DNA of 4,449 nucleotides from a virus (taxonomy: Duplodnaviria; Heunggongvirae; Uroviricota; Caudoviricetes): the IMG/VR virus record IMGVR_UViG_2778261509_000009, one strand, 5' to 3'. Both the position numbers and the translations under genes were made by a program. Shown piece by piece: positions 1 through 4,267 of this stretch; positions within the stretch are counted from its first letter, which is position 1, and each line of letters begins with the position of its first letter. The notes under the pieces are model-generated. The model had not been told where the DNA came from and made no database searches. It was given only the letters and a program-made list of their open reading frames with translations.

Positions 1-88
1 CGATTTTTTCCTGAGGTGTTTTACGTTTACGCACCTCTTTTCCTAACAAAACGCCAGCCATCTCAAAATTAGAACTAGTGTTAGACAT
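1..88 (-). CDS. hypothetical protein, N-terminal portion only (gene continues past the left edge)
   Basis: Minus-strand frame is open from an ATG at 88..86 (MSNTSSNFEMAGVLLGKEVRKRKTPQEKI...) to the window edge. An in-frame upstream ATG at 121 is an alternative start. Only a weak SD-like GGA/AGG lies upstream. Same orientation as and directly downstream of the Walker-A ORF. No family recognised. Confidence 0.3.
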   Translation of the reverse strand, partial: MSNTSSNFEMAGVLLGKEVRKRKTPQEKI

Positions 89-149
89 ATATCCAAGCCT
101 ATCTCTTATTTTAAGATACATCTACTGTCTGGTATTTCAGGGGGCCAGC

Positions 150-455
150 TCACATCCAACTTTTTTGATAAGCGGAAAGTTCTCCAGCCATTGCATCCTT
201 GTAAAGTTGATGGGCTGGCCATGGATAGTCACTAAAATTTAGACATACTGAGTAAAACCCGTTGAGATTGGCTGGTTTTCCTCTTCTAAGGTGTTCATAA
301 ATGGCTGTTTTACCAGTACCTTTTCTTCCAAGAACCAACCAAGCCCTACTTTCAATAATATCCTTTATCGCCGGTAGCTTAAAAAAATAGGTCTGTAAGT
401 CCCGATCTGTTTCTGCTGAAACTTGAAATTCTGGTAGCCAGTCTCTAATGTCCAC
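150..455 (-). CDS. small Walker-A (P-loop) protein, 101 aa; possibly a truncated or minimal NTPase
   Basis: ORF from the six-frame track. GTG start at 455 preceded by a strong SD (minus strand reads GTAAAGAGGAAAAT-GTG). Translation contains LVLGRKGTGKTAI, which fits the Walker A pattern GxxxxGK[ST]. No clear Walker B follows and the ORF is too short for a complete ATPase domain. Coding sequence is AT-rich by eye compared with the replication genes. Confidence 0.55.
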   Translation of the reverse strand: MDIRDWLPEFQVSAETDRDLQTYFFKLPAIKDIIESRAWLVLGRKGTGKTAIYEHLRRGKPANLNGFYSVCLNFSDYPWPAHQLYKDAMAGELSAYQKSWM

Positions 456-2199: not shown

Positions 2200-2701
2200 A
2201 ATTCCATCCAGCTTTTTGTTGGTATTGCAGTCGATACGCAAGTTTGAAAGCAATTGCTTTTTCTATAAGTTCGTCAGTTTCACGATCCACTACGGCAGGA
2301 TCAGCAAAAAGCAGTCCGGACTCCACCACATCGCCATATTCTTTGTTTAACCCGGCGATCATGTACGTGATGCTTTTTCCGTCACTAATTTCACGATACA
2401 ACCTGAAATCATTAATCCGGATAGCCTCCATAATTGCAGGCACTAGCGCCGTGAACTTTTCACGCTTATCCCTAGTGTCGATAGCCTTCCAGCGTTCGAA
2501 TATCTTCACTCGATTAACGCCAAGCGCTCGCTGATCAACCGCGCCACCTTCATCTGTGACACGCTGAACATCGATGTTCGGGCGCTCTTTCAAAGCCCAG
2601 AATGCTTCAGTGATTAATATCGTCGCCTGCTCCTGTGTCATTCCTGGTCGACATATCCAGGCATCCAGAGCCTCACGAGCCTGTTCAGGAGTGATTTTCA
2701 T
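2180..2701 (-). CDS. hypothetical early regulatory protein in the cII position (173 aa); possibly YdaT/CII-like, not verified
   Basis: ORF from the track with an ATG start at 2701. The start lies inside the last codons of the Cro-like gene (17-nt overlap; minus strand reads AATGAAAATCACTCCTGA), and the 3' end overlaps the initiator start by 20 nt, consistent with a tightly coupled operon. Functional assignment is by synteny only. Confidence 0.75.
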   Translation of the reverse strand: MKITPEQAREALDAWICRPGMTQEQATILITEAFWALKERPNIDVQRVTDEGGAVDQRALGVNRVKIFERWKAIDTRDKREKFTALVPAIMEAIRINDFRLYREISDGKSITYMIAGLNKEYGDVVESGLLFADPAVVDRETDELIEKAIAFKLAYRLQYQQKAGWNYEPSFC

Positions 2702-2912
2702 TGTTCAACCGCCCCGCCCGCTTCGTCTTACGATATTCGTCATAAACTTTGGGATCATACTGAAGCTCCCCGCCAGATGCCTCCTGTAGACGCATCGCGC
2801 GACCTTCAGGAACCAGTATCCCCCAAGCAGCAACACTTGCCAGTCTCACTCCTGCGGCATTGGCAAGCTTTGTTTTGCTGCCAAAAAAAGTAATTGCGTC
2901 AGCTTTAAGCAT
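2685..2912 (-). CDS. dicC: Cro-like small DNA-binding protein, DicC-type (75 aa)
   Basis: Translation MLKADAITFFGSKTKLANAAGVRLASVAAW...GRAMRLQEASGGELQYDPKVYDEYRKTKRAGRLNNENHS matches my recollection of E. coli Qin DicC and the YdaS/Cro-like family. Divergent from the DicA-like repressor. The track ORF starts at a TTG (2915); the adjacent ATG at 2912 has a consensus SD (minus strand reads AATAGGAGGCTTTG-ATG). Confidence 0.88.
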   Translation of the reverse strand: MLKADAITFFGSKTKLANAAGVRLASVAAWGILVPEGRAMRLQEASGGELQYDPKVYDEYRKTKRAGRLNNENHS

Positions 2913-2925
2913 CAAAGCCTCCTAT

Positions 2926-2943
2926 TGTTAGACTTTTCTAACA
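2926..2943. promoter_or_regulatory. operator O1: palindrome TGTTAGA-cttt-TCTAACA in the dicC/dicA divergent intergenic region
   Basis: Exact 7-bp inverted arms with a 4-bp spacer, read directly. The same palindrome recurs at 3437-3454. Lies immediately upstream of the dicC-like SD and overlaps the candidate -10 of the minus-strand promoter. Confidence 0.65.
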
Positions 2944-2970
2944 TTATTGTGCGCGGGATACCTAAGTCAA
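2943..2970 (-). promoter_or_regulatory. candidate sigma70 promoter for the Cro-like/replication operon: -35 TTGACT (plus-strand 2965-2970), 16-bp spacer, -10 AATAAT (plus-strand 2943-2948)
   Basis: Hexamers read on the minus strand. Predicted transcription start near 2936, giving a leader of about 24 nt to the dicC-like ATG. Operator O1 overlaps the -10 and start site. Not experimentally supported. Confidence 0.4.
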
Positions 2971-2992
2971 GAAAAATTAGAATTACCTAACT

Positions 2993-3400
2993 ATGGATAC
3001 AAGAACCCTAGGCCAGCGAGTTCTGGCGCGACGAAAAGAATTACGCTTAACACAACGAGAAGCTGCGCGCCTCGCTGGGGTTGCTCACGTCACAATTTCA
3101 CAATGGGAAAGAGACGAAACCCAGCCAGTCGGAAAACGATTGTTTGCTTTAGCGGATGCTCTGAAGTGCTCACCTACATGGCTAATGTTTGGTGACGAAG
3201 ACAAGGCACCAGTGCCGGCACAAGAACTTCATGTGGAAACAGAGCTAACTCCCAACCACAAAGAATTGATCGAATTATTCGATGCTCTTCCATCTTCCGA
3301 GCAGGAAGCCTTGCTGTCTGAAATGCGCGCAAGAGTAGAAAACTTCAACAAACTCTTCGAAGAAATGCTTAAAGCGCGTAAAAATAAATCAATAAAATAA
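2993..3400 (+). CDS. dicA: XRE-family HTH repressor, DicA-like (135 aa); prophage immunity repressor
   Basis: ATG start. Classic HTH region LTQREAARLAGVAHVTISQWERDE. Overall sequence (...GKRLFALADALKCSPTWLMFGDEDK...LIELFDALPSSEQEALLSEMRARVENFNKLFEEMLKARK) matches my recollection of E. coli DicA in length and motifs. Divergently arranged with the Cro-like gene. Confidence 0.92.
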   Translation: MDTRTLGQRVLARRKELRLTQREAARLAGVAHVTISQWERDETQPVGKRLFALADALKCSPTWLMFGDEDKAPVPAQELHVETELTPNHKELIELFDALPSSEQEALLSEMRARVENFNKLFEEMLKARKNKSIK

Positions 3401-3432
3401 CATTCTTTTCAAGTGATTAGTTGCGCCCACTC

Positions 3433-3458
3433 TTTTTGTTAGACTAATCTAACAAAAA
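3433..3458. promoter_or_regulatory. operator O2: perfect 11-bp inverted repeat TTTTTGTTAGA-ctaa-TCTAACAAAAA (core TGTTAGA-N4-TCTAACA at 3437-3454)
   Basis: Read directly; arms are exact reverse complements. Same core and spacer length as O1. Sits between the repressor stop and the ydfA-like gene. Confidence 0.7.
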
Positions 3459-3462
3459 ACAC

Positions 3463-3491
3463 TTGCCTCTTATGTTAGGTTATTCTAAATT
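3463..3491 (+). promoter_or_regulatory. candidate promoter of the rightward operon: -35 TTGCCT (3463-3468), 17-bp spacer, -10 TAAATT (3486-3491)
   Basis: Weak hexamers (each about 4/6 to consensus), but flanked by O2 upstream and overlapped by O3, the arrangement expected for a repressor-controlled promoter. Low confidence. Confidence 0.3.
3473..3490. promoter_or_regulatory. operator O3 (degenerate): TGTTAGg-ttat-TCTAAat
   Basis: Same 7-4-7 architecture as O1 and O2 with one mismatch in the left arm and two in the right arm. Centre lies 36 bp from the O2 centre. Confidence 0.5.
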
Positions 3492-3568
3492 ACTTTCCAT
3501 CAAGACACCGCACGGTGTTCTCAGCAAACAGTTCCGCTACCCCGGCGTTAAGGGGAAATGAGGTCAGC

Positions 3569-3721
3569 ATGGATACTATCGATCTTGGCAACAGCGAATC
3601 TCTGGTATGTGGCGTGTTCCCCAACCAGGACGGCACGTTCACCGCGATGACGTATACCAAAAGCAAAACGTTTAAAACCGAATCTGGCGCGCGTTGCTGG
3701 TTAGCCAGAAACACTGACTGA
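3569..3721 (+). CDS. ydfA: YdfA-like small protein (50 aa), first gene of the repressor-controlled rightward operon
   Basis: ATG at 3569 preceded by an SD (GGGGAAATGAGGTCAGC-ATG). Translation MDTIDLGNSESLVCGVFPNQDGTFTAMTYTKSKTFKTESGARCWLARNTD matches my recollection of E. coli Qin YdfA, which follows dicA in Qin. The track ORF begins earlier at 3515, but that extension has no homology support. Confidence 0.8.
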   Translation: MDTIDLGNSESLVCGVFPNQDGTFTAMTYTKSKTFKTESGARCWLARNTD

Positions 3722-4098
3722 TGAGGCTGACGATGGAATTTAAAGATTTACCGTCTGATGTACAGAAAACAGCAGCTCATACATTGCATTCTGTGCTGCG
3801 AGAAATCGGGAAAGATATTGCAAGCGAGCCAGCAAAAGATCTGGCCCGGAAAATCAAGACCGCTTTCGTTGAGCTTTATAATGTTGGCACTGACTCTGAA
3901 ACTGTCGAGACCAAGACCGTAAGTTCACCAATATTCTCACTTGAGCCAGGCGTATTATCAGGTGAAATATGCACCGAGATTTCCAGCGAACTGCTTCCGG
4001 TAATACGAGAAGCAATTTGCCGTCGCGGTTTGGATGGAAGTTACGATCATGACGTCCTGCAAGTTCTCAGGACAATGGTGACTTCACTGGGGATTTGA
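3721..4098 (+). CDS. hypothetical acidic protein (125 aa; 121 aa if started at 3733), unknown function
   Basis: ATG at 3721 overlaps the ydfA-like stop by one base (TGATG), suggesting translational coupling. An alternative ATG at 3733 has a GAGG SD 6 nt upstream. No family recognised. Occupies the position where Qin carries ydfB/ydfC/dicF/dicB. Confidence 0.6.
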   Translation: MRLTMEFKDLPSDVQKTAAHTLHSVLREIGKDIASEPAKDLARKIKTAFVELYNVGTDSETVETKTVSSPIFSLEPGVLSGEICTEISSELLPVIREAICRRGLDGSYDHDVLQVLRTMVTSLGI

Positions 4099-4267
4099 TC
4101 CCTGCGTCCTCTAACCTTTTGATATAGCGGTCCTCCAAGAAGCGGTAAATTTTGTCGAAATCATCTTTCCCCTCTGGTTTATTCAGAGGATTACAGGACC
4201 CGTAAGTAGCGGCATACATTTCAACCGTTTTATCAAAAATATAAGAGACAAATTCTTCTTTAGTCAT
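4067..4267 (-). CDS. hypothetical 66-aa protein, convergent with and overlapping the preceding plus-strand gene
   Basis: Internal ATG at 4267 with a good SD (minus strand reads AAGGAAATCTAT-ATG). Its 3' end overlaps the plus-strand ORF by 32 nt (4067-4098). The frame stays open upstream to the right window edge, so a longer product is possible. No family recognised. Confidence 0.5.
   Translation of the reverse strand: MTKEEFVSYIFDKTVEMYAATYGSCNPLNKPEGKDDFDKIYRFLEDRYIKRLEDAGIKSPVKSPLS

Follow-up and report, generated by a model that had tools for sequence, protein, structure and literature searches.

The DNA analysed here, a stretch of 4,449 nucleotides from a tailed virus of the Caudoviricetes (IMGVR_UViG_2778261509_000009; hereafter the window), raises the question of what is served by a palindrome, TGTTAGA-N4-TCTAACA, that recurs on both sides of a gene for a small repressor. 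An initial annotation, made from the letters alone, took three copies of this palindrome to be operators of the DicA-like repressor and possibly also of a Cro-like protein. This assignment is supported by homology, by covariation of the sites with the proteins and by the literature on Escherichia coli K-12, and the sites very probably serve as operators in a lambdoid immunity switch of the P22 type, within a Qin-type prophage.

The immunity locus and its palindromes

The genes at the locus were found where the initial annotation had placed them. The dicA-like gene (2993-3400, + strand) encodes a repressor of 135 aa, with an N-terminal helix-turn-helix (HTH) domain and a short C-terminal domain, which is 57% identical to K-12 DicA over 132 aa (E 4e-55), matches Pfam HTH_3 (E 1.5e-14) and gives no Pfam match to Peptidase_S24. 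Its residues 1-71 match structures of the P22 c2 N-domain (phmmer; 1adr, E 1.3e-18; 2r1j, E 3.6e-18; 3jxb is also among these matches), and lambda cI and Cro are not among its PDB matches. Divergent from it, with 80 nt between the two start codons, is the dicC-like Cro gene (2685-2912, - strand; ATG at 2912), the 75-aa product of which is 86% identical to K-12 DicC and matches Pfam P22_Cro (E 1.1e-12). This is the first gene of a leftward, PR-like operon that also contains cII/YdaT-like, O-like replication initiator and Ren-like genes, in keeping with the replication functions previously attributed to it. Beyond the repressor gene, the ydfA-like gene (DUF1391; 3569-3721, + strand, ATG at 3569; Pfam E 4e-27) is the first of a rightward operon.

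A 100% identical copy of window positions 2600-3800 is present in a prophage of E. coli ETEC1738, where the dicC-like gene is a RefSeq CDS, the rightward operon runs on beyond the ydfA-like gene to dicB and ydfD, and the neighbours of the locus comprise dicB, ydfD, rem (CDS annotated at L002 12157-12408), relBE and the rspB-side attachment region. Furthermore, 554 of 5426 complete E. coli genomes contain a region that covers 80% or more of the 1.2-kb query (window 2600-3800, repressor gene included), and ECOR29 is, like ETEC1738, a strain with this allele. By these homologies, the window is an allele of the dicC-dicA-dicBp module and thus the immunity region of an E. coli prophage of the Qin type.

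The upstream palindrome, O1 (TGTTAGACTTTTCTAACA, 2926-2943), and the first downstream palindrome, O2 (TGTTAGACTAATCTAACA, 3437-3454), have no mismatch to TGTTAGA-N4-TCTAACA by both direct reading and pattern search, and the second downstream copy, O3 (TGTTAGGTTATTCTAAAT, 3473-3490), was recovered by pattern search with 3 mismatches among the 14 specified positions (no strand is assigned to any of the operator-like sites). Extended by one base at each end, O1 becomes TTGTTAGACTTTTCTAACAT (2925-2944), which fits the Oc-type TTGTTAG-N6-CTAACAA, while O2 lies at the centre of perfect 11-bp arms (3433-3443 and 3448-3458, with 4 nt between them), the whole feature (3433-3458) including T5/A5 flanks. 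These arms, as well as the centre-to-centre distance of 36 bp between O2 and O3, had been described correctly; the corresponding distance between O1 and O2 is 511 bp. The three copies are thus present as claimed, but the count of three falls short, having missed a degenerate fourth copy at 2975-2992 (AATTAGAATTACCTAACT; reverse complement AGTTAGGTAATTCTAATT) that has 4 mismatches to the consensus and directly abuts the ATG of the dicA-like gene. In reverse complement, this site is identical to O3 at 15 of 18 positions. A middle operator position (2950-2967, TGCGCGGGATACCTAAGT), recognised by positional alignment as the equivalent of P22 OR2 and K-12 Om, matches at only 7 of 14 positions and is probably decayed and functionless.

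The recurrence of the palindrome had been considered very unlikely by chance, and shuffling bears this out: no exact copy was obtained in 200 shuffles or in 2000 dinucleotide-preserving shuffles, and copies with up to 3 mismatches occurred in shuffles at a mean of 0.21 per window, with a maximum of 2. In the two intergenic regions together there are 4 sites with up to 4 mismatches, versus 0.085 expected from dinucleotide-preserving shuffles. A motif search elsewhere in the prophage, a check that the initial annotation had suggested, gave nothing beyond chance, with no further copy of TGTTAG-N6-CTAACA (up to 2 mismatches) across 41 kb except one chance-level match. A 3-mismatch site within the window at 600-617 (TGTTAGTATGCTCAAGCA), which matches by its left arm alone, was likewise set aside as being at chance level (0.21 expected per window).

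Allelic variation and covariation with the two proteins

Comparison of 74 loci with a repressor at least 90% identical to that of the window (the allele group) shows half-sites that are invariant, with variation in the central 4 bp and in the flanks; within the operators of this allele, variation is restricted to positions 7-12. For O1 (19 unique sequences) the half-sites are invariant and the spacer varies, and for O2 (40 unique sequences) the half-sites are again invariant, with changes at 3443-3446 and 3448. This allelic variation refines the definition of the half-site to an invariant core, TGTTAG-N6-CTAACA, in which positions 7 (A/G) and 12 (T/C) vary. O3 and 2975-2992 share the motif WGTTAGG-TWAT-TCTAAWT. 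In the allele group 2975-2992 is invariant and O3 is nearly so, with 2 of 18 columns varying in one sequence each, and the flanks of O3 (3468-3472 and 3493-3498) vary strongly. Each of these two degenerate sites overlaps a predicted -10 hexamer, and promoter function alone could account for their conservation.

Beyond the allele group, the positions of the sites are kept in 21 divergent loci that represent about 8 specificity classes. In 19 diverse loci the O1 equivalent keeps a constant distance from the repressor ATG (-65 to -68), and in 15 of 19 loci the first downstream site is followed by a second at 34-36 bp. When the upstream site is located by a positional anchor (-62 to -72 from the repressor ATG), its sequence predicts both downstream sites within the same locus or class (21.6-22.5 of 28 positions; 21 loci), whereas against the downstream sites of other classes the score is 16.9 of 28, i.e. 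there is no prediction (permutation p about 5e-5, with one representative per class). Simply taking the best palindrome from the 110 nt that precede each repressor gene yielded unrelated palindromes in several loci, and this procedure was dropped. Also shifting with the specificity class are the sequence of O2 and the helix-3 regions of both the DicA-like and the DicC-like proteins, and the 2975-2992 region tracks the class weakly. The resulting comparative table of helix-3 sequences versus half-sites (TGTTAG, TGTTGAG, TTGAG/CTCAA, ATAAC/GTTAT and CTTAAC) could help to predict the immunity groups of Qin-type, Rac-type and mEp460-type prophages.

Promoters, the proposed switch and alternative readings

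A leftward promoter (PdicC, PR-like) is predicted at 2943-2970 on the - strand, with a -35 hexamer TTGACT (2970-2965), a 16-nt spacer and a -10 hexamer AATAAT (2948-2943); the promoter scan gives it a consensus match of 10 of 12, and its AGTCAA hexamer is invariant in an alignment of the window, K-12 and P22-type sequences. The predicted rightward promoter (dicBp, PL-like; 3463-3491, + strand) has the -35 hexamer TTGCCT (3463-3468), a 17-nt spacer and the -10 hexamer TAAATT (3486-3491). It matches the consensus at 8 of 12 positions, which is under the threshold of the promoter scanner, but it is colinear with K-12 TTGACC-17-TAATCT and P22-type TTGACC-17-TAAATT, and the CTTG(A/C)C hexamer is retained in loci with different operators. 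Transcription from this promoter would be expected to start near A3499, within the conserved CCATCAA. The predicted leftward start is near 2936 (- strand), and that of dicA near 2990 (+ strand), which would give the dicA mRNA little or no leader. O1 starts at the last base of the leftward -10 and so covers the presumed leftward start region, O2 and O3 flank the rightward -35, with O2 just upstream of it and O3 occupying the spacer and the -10, and a candidate -10 hexamer for the repressor gene, TAGAAT (2978-2983), lies inside the fourth site.

The rightward-operon leader that follows (3499-3568, + strand) is not an operator. It consists of a hairpin ACACC-GCAC-GGTGT, the sequence GTTCCGC and a hairpin CCCC-GGCGTTAA-GGGG, is nearly invariant as far as about 3537 and again over 3544-3547, changes being scattered from 3538 onwards, and is common to loci of other immunity classes and to phage mEp460. 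A scan of the whole window against Rfam, with E up to 1, returned no match for the palindromes or the leader, and neither is therefore placed in a described RNA family. The leader was also considered as a structured RNA: RNAalifold on ten diverse leader sequences gives only 7 pairs with no compensatory change, and 3499-3571, folded as a single sequence, does not exceed shuffled sequences in stability (z -0.18). No claim of RNA structure is therefore made for it.

In the proposed switch, a dimer of the DicA-like repressor would bind the 18-bp, twofold-symmetric sites by means of its P22 c2-like HTH, contacting the outer arms TGTTAG(R) and (Y)CTAACA and leaving the central 4 bp free. Because O1 lies over the leftward start region, a dimer bound there would block transcription of the dicC-like cro, cII/YdaT-like, O-like initiator and Ren-like genes, and because O3 fills the rightward spacer and -10, its occupancy would block the operon that extends from ydfA to dicB and ydfD. 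The weak site at 2975-2992, an OR3 equivalent overlapping the region of the repressor's own predicted -10 and start codon, would be the likely place at which the DicC-like protein, or an excess of repressor, shuts off dicA. Recognition of all these sites would also be expected of the DicC-like protein, and the outcome would be a bistable switch. As the repressor is without an S24 domain, induction would be expected to proceed via the Rem antirepressor, not by RecA cleavage.

It is unlikely that O1 and O2 alone are operators, with O3 and 2975-2992 being kept as the -10 regions of the rightward and the repressor's own promoter, sites with mere relics of ancestral P22-like operators that are unbound at physiological concentration. 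Such a division of the sites would agree with the weak tracking of specificity by 2975-2992 and its reading of TAGAAT at 2978-2983, with the location of two right-arm mismatches of O3 in the -10 hexamer TAAATT, and with the behaviour of K-12 Om and Oa, which showed no DicA binding in an in vivo assay (PMC3441716). However, TGTTAG, the left arm of O3, does not form part of a promoter hexamer; it is nonetheless invariant while the 5' flank varies strongly, and it shifts with the specificity class (TGTTAG, GGTTAG, AATGAG and others). Of the natural P22 operators, the one bound most tightly is OL1, the equivalent of O3 (PMC4267663), and a repressor at O2 alone, upstream of the -35, would be poorly positioned for repression.

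The conserved spacing of 34-36 bp is most simply explained by two sites flanking the rightward -35, as at P22 PL. A distance of 36 bp (3.4 turns) would leave bound dimers offset by about 0.4 helical turn, and since neither the 36-bp nor the 49-bp spacing (the latter between O1 and 2975-2992) keeps to one helix face, the arrangement argues against simple side-by-side cooperativity. Either of two more elaborate schemes is improbable, namely two operator subclasses (O1 and O2 perfect; O3 and 2975-2992 weak and preferred by DicC), or a repression loop of DicA oligomers over the 511 bp around the repressor gene. Looped oligomers, if true, would explain why the 36- and 49-bp spacings are unfit for side-by-side cooperativity.

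We infer that the palindromes are bound by the DicA-like repressor as well as by its Cro-like partner; that the Cro-like DicC is their main or sole ligand, with the DicA-like protein acting elsewhere or indirectly, is very improbable. In K-12, the strongest DicC ChIP-seq signal does fall on both sides of dicA, with a palindrome TT(A/C/T)G...C(G/A/T)AA (PMC11430063), and the helix region of the DicC-like proteins covaries with the operator class; but helix 3 of the DicA-like proteins also covaries with the sites, and the DicA-like N-domain is a homologue of that of P22 c2, the operators of which share the 18-bp geometry (PMC4267663). Furthermore, Oc-dependent repression in K-12 needs dicA and returns when the gene is supplied on a plasmid (PMC3441716), and dicBp is derepressed 22-fold by deletion of dicA, not by deletion of dicC (PMC10448788). 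DicA and DicC are absent from the main text of the ChIP-seq compendium paper (PMC12059191), and a binding-site sequence was not found in the YjdC paper (PMC9283627).

That O2 is an RNA hairpin (a terminator or processing site) ending the repressor transcript, and not a protein site, is barely credible: the perfect 11-bp inverted repeat does begin 33 nt past the dicA-like stop codon, in an interval up to the rightward promoter where the terminator scan finds no other terminator-like site, but as an intrinsic terminator O2 was rejected, its stem being AU-rich, not GC-rich, and followed by A6 on the + strand with no U-tract, and the scan does not report it. The same 18-bp core is found at O1, where no gene ends, and the substitutions seen in the allele group, which affect the central 4 bp and positions 7 and 12 of the arms, disregard pairing, with TGTTAGG...TCTAACA in one locus (L088) breaking the innermost pair.

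Comparison with K-12 Qin, P22 and lambda

The preferred reading, a set of P22-type operators, has its counterpart in K-12 Qin, a cryptic prophage of the same type, in the same chromosomal neighbourhood and with the same gene order (dicC leftward; dicA, ydfA...dicB and ydfD rightward), in which the outer operator core, TGTTAG-N6-CTAACA, is identical to that of the window. From this identity, each repressor would be predicted to act at least in part on the operators of the other. Both K-12 Qin and the window-type prophage carry the rem antirepressor gene, and K-12 DicA is also without a RecA-cleavable S24 domain (PMC10448788). Site by site, K-12 Oc (TTGTTAGTCATAACTAACAA) aligns with O1, Oa aligns with 2975-2992, and the pair TGTTAGCTATAGCATACA / TGTTAGTCATGGCTAATC, spaced by 35 bp on either side of the -35, aligns with O2/O3. 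Oc binds DicA in vivo and gives DicA-dependent repression that is abolished by one A-to-C change, from CTAACA to CTCACA (PMC3441716). DicC ChIP-seq in K-12 places sites to both sides of dicA, and their palindromic motif fits the sites described here (PMC11430063). Reg-Seq finds a DicA site at dicC, and the same source lists a DicA site at dicB as low-evidence, with location unknown (PMC7567609); the homology with the window indicates where within K-12 dicBp DicA would be expected to bind.

The two loci differ in the repressor, which is a divergent allele at 57% aa identity, and in the inner operator, which is GT-CATA-AC in Oc versus GA-CTTT-TC in the window. The K-12 counterpart of O2 has 4 of 14 mismatches to Oc, whereas O2 of the window is a perfect palindrome, and Om of K-12 contrasts with a middle position that is not recognisable in the window. 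The K-12 leftward operon, moreover, is reduced to ydfX and ydfW remnants, while that of the window is intact, with its YdaT/cII-like, O-like initiator and Ren-like genes.

The likeness to P22 extends from the proteins to the layout. The N-domain of P22 c2 is homologous to that of the window repressor (helix 3 being VSNVAISQWE in P22 and VAHVTISQWE in the window), and the dicC-like protein belongs to the Cro family of P22 (P22_Cro). The operators of c2 are 18-bp symmetric sites in which the central 4 bp are uncontacted (PMC4267663), and the same twofold symmetry with a variable central 4 bp is found in the window. Residue-level c2-DNA contacts were not found in PMC4267663, and no residue-to-base assignment is therefore made. 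Both intergenic regions are colinear with a P22-type immC, and the correspondence extends to individual operators and promoter hexamers. OR1, the equivalent of O1, adjoins cro, with the PR -35 as AGTCAA; OR3 (ATTTAAGATGACTTAACT-ATG) aligns with 2975-2992, both sites reaching position -1 relative to the start codon of the repressor gene (...CTTAACTATG versus ...CCTAACTATG); and on the far side of the repressor gene the common order is OL2 (O2), CACTTGACC, OL1 (O3) and CCATCA, with 35-bp spacing. The initial annotation had not recognised this known P22-type immC layout.

P22 differs from the window in its half-site (ATTTAAG versus TGTTAGA) and in its repressor, since c2 has 216 aa with a RecA-cleavable C-terminal domain, in contrast to the 135 aa and other short C-terminal domain, without S24, of the window protein. 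Three adjacent operators lie about 23-25 bp apart in P22, whereas in the window the OR1 and OR3 equivalents are 49 bp apart and the OR2 equivalent is decayed, and P22 PL is followed by N, boxA and boxB, in place of which the window has another conserved leader and then ydfA.

The operators of lambda are 17 bp long and of different sequence, with three functional sites per side about 23-24 bp apart, and activation of RecA leads to cleavage of lambda cI. In contrast, the window has two clear sites per side, and its induction is expected via an antirepressor. The features in common with lambda are the divergent repressor and cro genes, shared operators that overlap promoters of PR and PRM type, a further set of operators beyond the repressor gene at a promoter of PL type, and the bistable behaviour (PMC10448788). 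The operator set is now identified for a common, previously uncharacterised allele of dicA, and the switch itself is an ordinary one, another allele of the classic immunity switch known from P22 and lambda.

Proposed operator sites and their prophage setting

The 18-bp 7-4-7 palindrome TGTTAGA-N4-TCTAACA is present in the three copies described in the initial annotation, with exact matches at O1 (2926-2943, TGTTAGACTTTTCTAACA), between the dicC-like and dicA-like genes, and at O2 (3437-3454, TGTTAGACTAATCTAACA), between dicA-like and ydfA-like, and with 3 mismatches in the 14 specified positions at the neighbouring O3 (3473-3490, TGTTAGGTTATTCTAAAT). A repeat finder likewise returned the perfect 11-bp arms of O2 (3433-3443/3448-3458) and the 36-bp spacing of O2 and O3. 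The proposal that such recurrence is unlikely by chance is borne out by shuffle controls (n=200 and n=2000), which gave 0 exact copies and a mean of 0.21 copies with up to three mismatches. The same tool also paired 2974-2991 with 3474-3491 (89% complementary), a pair overlooked in the initial annotation. This corresponds to a fourth site at 2975-2992 (AATTAGAATTACCTAACT), which has 4 mismatches to the consensus, is identical to O3 at 15/18 positions in reverse complement and has its last base directly preceding the repressor ATG. The two intergenic regions thus hold 4 sites with up to four mismatches, against 0.085 expected. A motif search elsewhere in the prophage found no additional significant copy, the one at 600-617 (3 mismatches), in the spacer upstream of a P-loop ATPase gene, being at chance level.

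Positions 2600-3800 are 100% identical to part of the E. coli ETEC1738 chromosome, and among 5426 complete E. coli genomes, 554 contain a region that spans 80% or more of this query. The flanking 41 kb form a Qin-type prophage (relBE, hokD, rem, cspB/F/I, ydfT/U, dicB, ydfD, exo, xis, int) next to rspB/ynfA. In Pfam, the dicA-like repressor (2993-3400 (+)) matches HTH_3 and lacks an S24 peptidase domain, and the Cro-like protein (2685-2912 (-)) matches P22_Cro. Beyond cro, the leftward operon encodes a YdaT/cII-like protein, an O-like replication initiator (phrog_391, E 3e-93) and a Ren-like DUF977 protein; it was therefore correctly termed a replication operon. It is the counterpart of the lambda PR operon, as the rightward operon (ydfA-like ... 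dicB, ydfD, exo, xis, int) is of PL.

Following the Ren-like gene, an AT-rich spacer (456-770, 30% GC) precedes the P-loop ATPase gene, of which window 1-455 (-) is the start (495 aa, 'P-loop ATPase, Sll1717 family'; 16369-17856 in the ETEC1738 prophage, L002) and which is followed by an ISEsa1 remnant. The gene is a moron-like insertion; PADLOC gave a single match, a weak one to the candidate defence family PDC-M28C (E 4e-5). At the position of K-12 ydfB and ydfC lie two convergent small ORFs, 3733-4098 (+) (phrog_33007) and 4067-4267 (-) (phrog_34441), whose 3' ends share about 30 nt; the ETEC1738 record and Escherichia phage mEp460_ev081 each have both ORFs annotated.

Variation of sites and repressors

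Loci were collected from species-representative genomes (21) and viral contigs (80), and the 74 whose repressor shares 90% or more identity with that of the window were treated as one allele group (unique sequences: 19 upstream, 40 downstream). Within this group the half-sites are invariant, and changes are seen in the central spacer and at positions 7 and 12 (2933, 2934, 2937; 3443-3446, 3448). O3 is almost invariant (2/18 columns vary, in one sequence each), 2975-2992 is entirely so, and the flanks vary, with 3468-3472 and 3493-3498 highly variable. This is the footprint that would be expected of P22-type operators; the P22 repressor recognizes six 18-bp symmetric operators, the central four base pairs of which are uncontacted (PMC4267663).

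Across distant relatives, site positions are constant (upstream site offset from the ATG by -65 to -68 in 19 loci, two downstream sites 34-36 bp apart in 15/19), while site sequence varies with the helix-3 region of the repressor. Helices VAHVTISQWE and ISHVSVSQWE accompany half-sites TGTTAG...CTAACA; ISHATISLWE and VSYASISLWE, TGTTGAG...; VSGSSISLWE and VSDSSISLWE, also in phage mEp460, TTGAG-TTTT-CTCAA; KSSVSVFKWE and RSSVSVFKWE, ATAAC/GTTAT; and VSHVTIFKWE, CTTAAC.... The Cro-like proteins shift in parallel (RLASVAAW/ELQSIYKW, then DRSAVSQW, then DPSAVSQW). When the upstream site was scored against the best two downstream sites (out of 28 positions), the match was 21.6/28 within the same locus, 22.5/28 with other loci of the same class and 16.9/28 (sd 1.6) with loci of other classes; with one representative per class, the proportion of permutations reaching the observed own-locus sum was 5e-5. 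This covariation and class-specific matching support one cognate recognition system that operates on either side of the repressor gene, and would fit recognition of the same sites by both proteins.

Loci of different operator classes share, with no more than one residue changed, the C-terminal two-thirds of the DicC-like protein (LVPEGRAMRLQEASGGEL.YDPKVYDEYRKTKRAGRLNNENHS), and the N-terminal helix region differs between those classes (window 2685-2912 (-) and two further loci, L012 and L001). Given this sharing, and since the window and K-12 proteins are 86% identical for DicC versus 57% for DicA, an immunity-cassette recombination boundary seems to lie within cro. Phage mEp460 (L105, 2670-5152) has the gene order of the window and near-identical flanks (98.9-100%: YdaT-like, O-like, leader, ydfA-like, dicB). 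It is a functional, sequenced lambdoid phage with a different DicA-type immunity cassette (operators ATTGAG-TTTT-CTCAAT), and prophage annotations are therefore not the only source of short repressor switches of the DicA type, since an entry deposited as a phage genome has one too.

Predicted promoters and the rightward leader

The predicted leftward promoter (-) has consensus-like hexamers (-35 TTGACT, 2970-2965; -10 AATAAT, 2948-2943), and O1 starts at the final base of its -10 and spans the predicted start region. The predicted rightward promoter (+), conserved relative to K-12 and P22, comprises -35 TTGCCT (3463-3468), 17 nt and -10 TAAATT (3486-3491); O3 occupies its spacer and -10, and O2 ends 8 nt before its -35, with an A-tract between. 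Bound at O1 and at O3 (plus O2), repressor dimers would exclude RNA polymerase. The right arm of O3 reads TCTAAAT in place of TCTAACA and creates the -10 hexamer TAAATT, exactly as the right arm of P22 OL1 does, and the simple reading of its 'degeneracy' would be that the arm doubles as the -10. Simple cooperative binding at O2/O3 is not supported, as their 36 bp correspond to 3.4 helical turns and the spacing is set by the promoter lying between them. The 2975-2992 site overlaps a candidate dicA -10 (TAGAAT, 2978-2983), from which a leaderless or nearly leaderless mRNA would arise; DicC-like protein bound there would turn the repressor gene off, like Cro at OR3. Induction would proceed through Rem, not RecA cleavage.

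The leader that separates the rightward promoter from the ydfA-like ATG (3499-3568 (+)) is near-invariant within the allele group as far as about 3537, more tightly conserved than the repressor CDS (65/408 columns variable), and almost unchanged in loci of other immunity specificities (K-12, L012/L013 and phage mEp460). It contains two hairpins and an invariant GTTCCG; the first hairpin is ACACC-GCAC-GGTGT, and the second varies among relatives in its stem (CCCC/GGGG, CCCTG/CAGGG, GCC/GGC, GCCG/CGGC) around a constant loop, GCG-W-TAA. Rfam gave no match for the leader, and its fold stability showed no excess over shuffles (z -0.18). Since some relatives (L005) have a canonical boxA (CGCTCTTTAACAA) further downstream, the leader is probably not the nut site.

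Correspondence with the K-12 Qin and P22 switches

The outer core of K-12 Oc (TTGTTAGTCATAACTAACAA; PMC3441716), TGTTAG-N6-CTAACA, is identical to that of O1, and both sites directly follow the -10 of the dicC promoter. Yun et al. found that Oc confers dicA-dependent repression in vivo, that one A-to-C change in it abolishes repression, that DicA bound to Oc acts as a repressor of dicC and an activator of dicA, and that the other sequence-predicted operators, Om and Oa, do not bind DicA (PMC3441716). Ragunathan et al. described operator sequences resembling lambda PR and PL in both intergenic regions, a 22-fold derepression of dicBp upon dicA deletion, DicC-dependent bistable behaviour and the Rem antirepressor (PMC10448788). 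Reg-Seq recovered the DicA site at dicC and lists that at dicB as low-evidence, location unknown (PMC7567609). In the K-12 dicA-ydfA spacer, TGTTAGCTATAGCATACA and TGTTAGTCATGGCTAATC lie 35 bp apart with TTGACC in between, colinear with O2, TTGCCT and O3 of the window.

Residues 1-71 of the repressor match the N-terminal domain of P22 c2 (E 1e-18), with a near-identical helix 3 (VSNVAISQWE in P22, VAHVTISQWE in the window). As a P22-type immC reference we used phage As3, whose c2 N-domain is 100% identical to that of P22 and whose immC aligns colinearly with both intergenic regions of the window. Here OR1 (ATTAAAGAACACTTAAAT) adjoins cro, OR2 overlaps the -35 AGTCAA and the last base of OR3 (ATTTAAGATGACTTAACT) is -1 relative to the c2 ATG; across the repressor gene come OL2 (ATTTAAGTTTTCTTCAAA), CACTTGACC, OL1 (AATTAAGAAGTCTTAAAT) and CCATCA, with OL2 and OL1 35 bp apart centre to centre. 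Because the intergenic regions are colinear, the sites correspond one to one: O1 to K-12 Oc and P22 OR1, a decayed site at 2950-2967 (7/14 match) to Om and OR2, 2975-2992 to Oa and OR3, O2 to the first dicBp site and OL2, and O3 to the second dicBp site and OL1, the tightest natural P22 operator (PMC4267663). Comparison with K-12 and P22, together with the covariation, thus supports the original interpretation of operators for a dimeric HTH repressor controlling both operons, and the sites are a divergent and common allele of an operator set already known, that of the P22-type Qin DicA/DicC immunity system.
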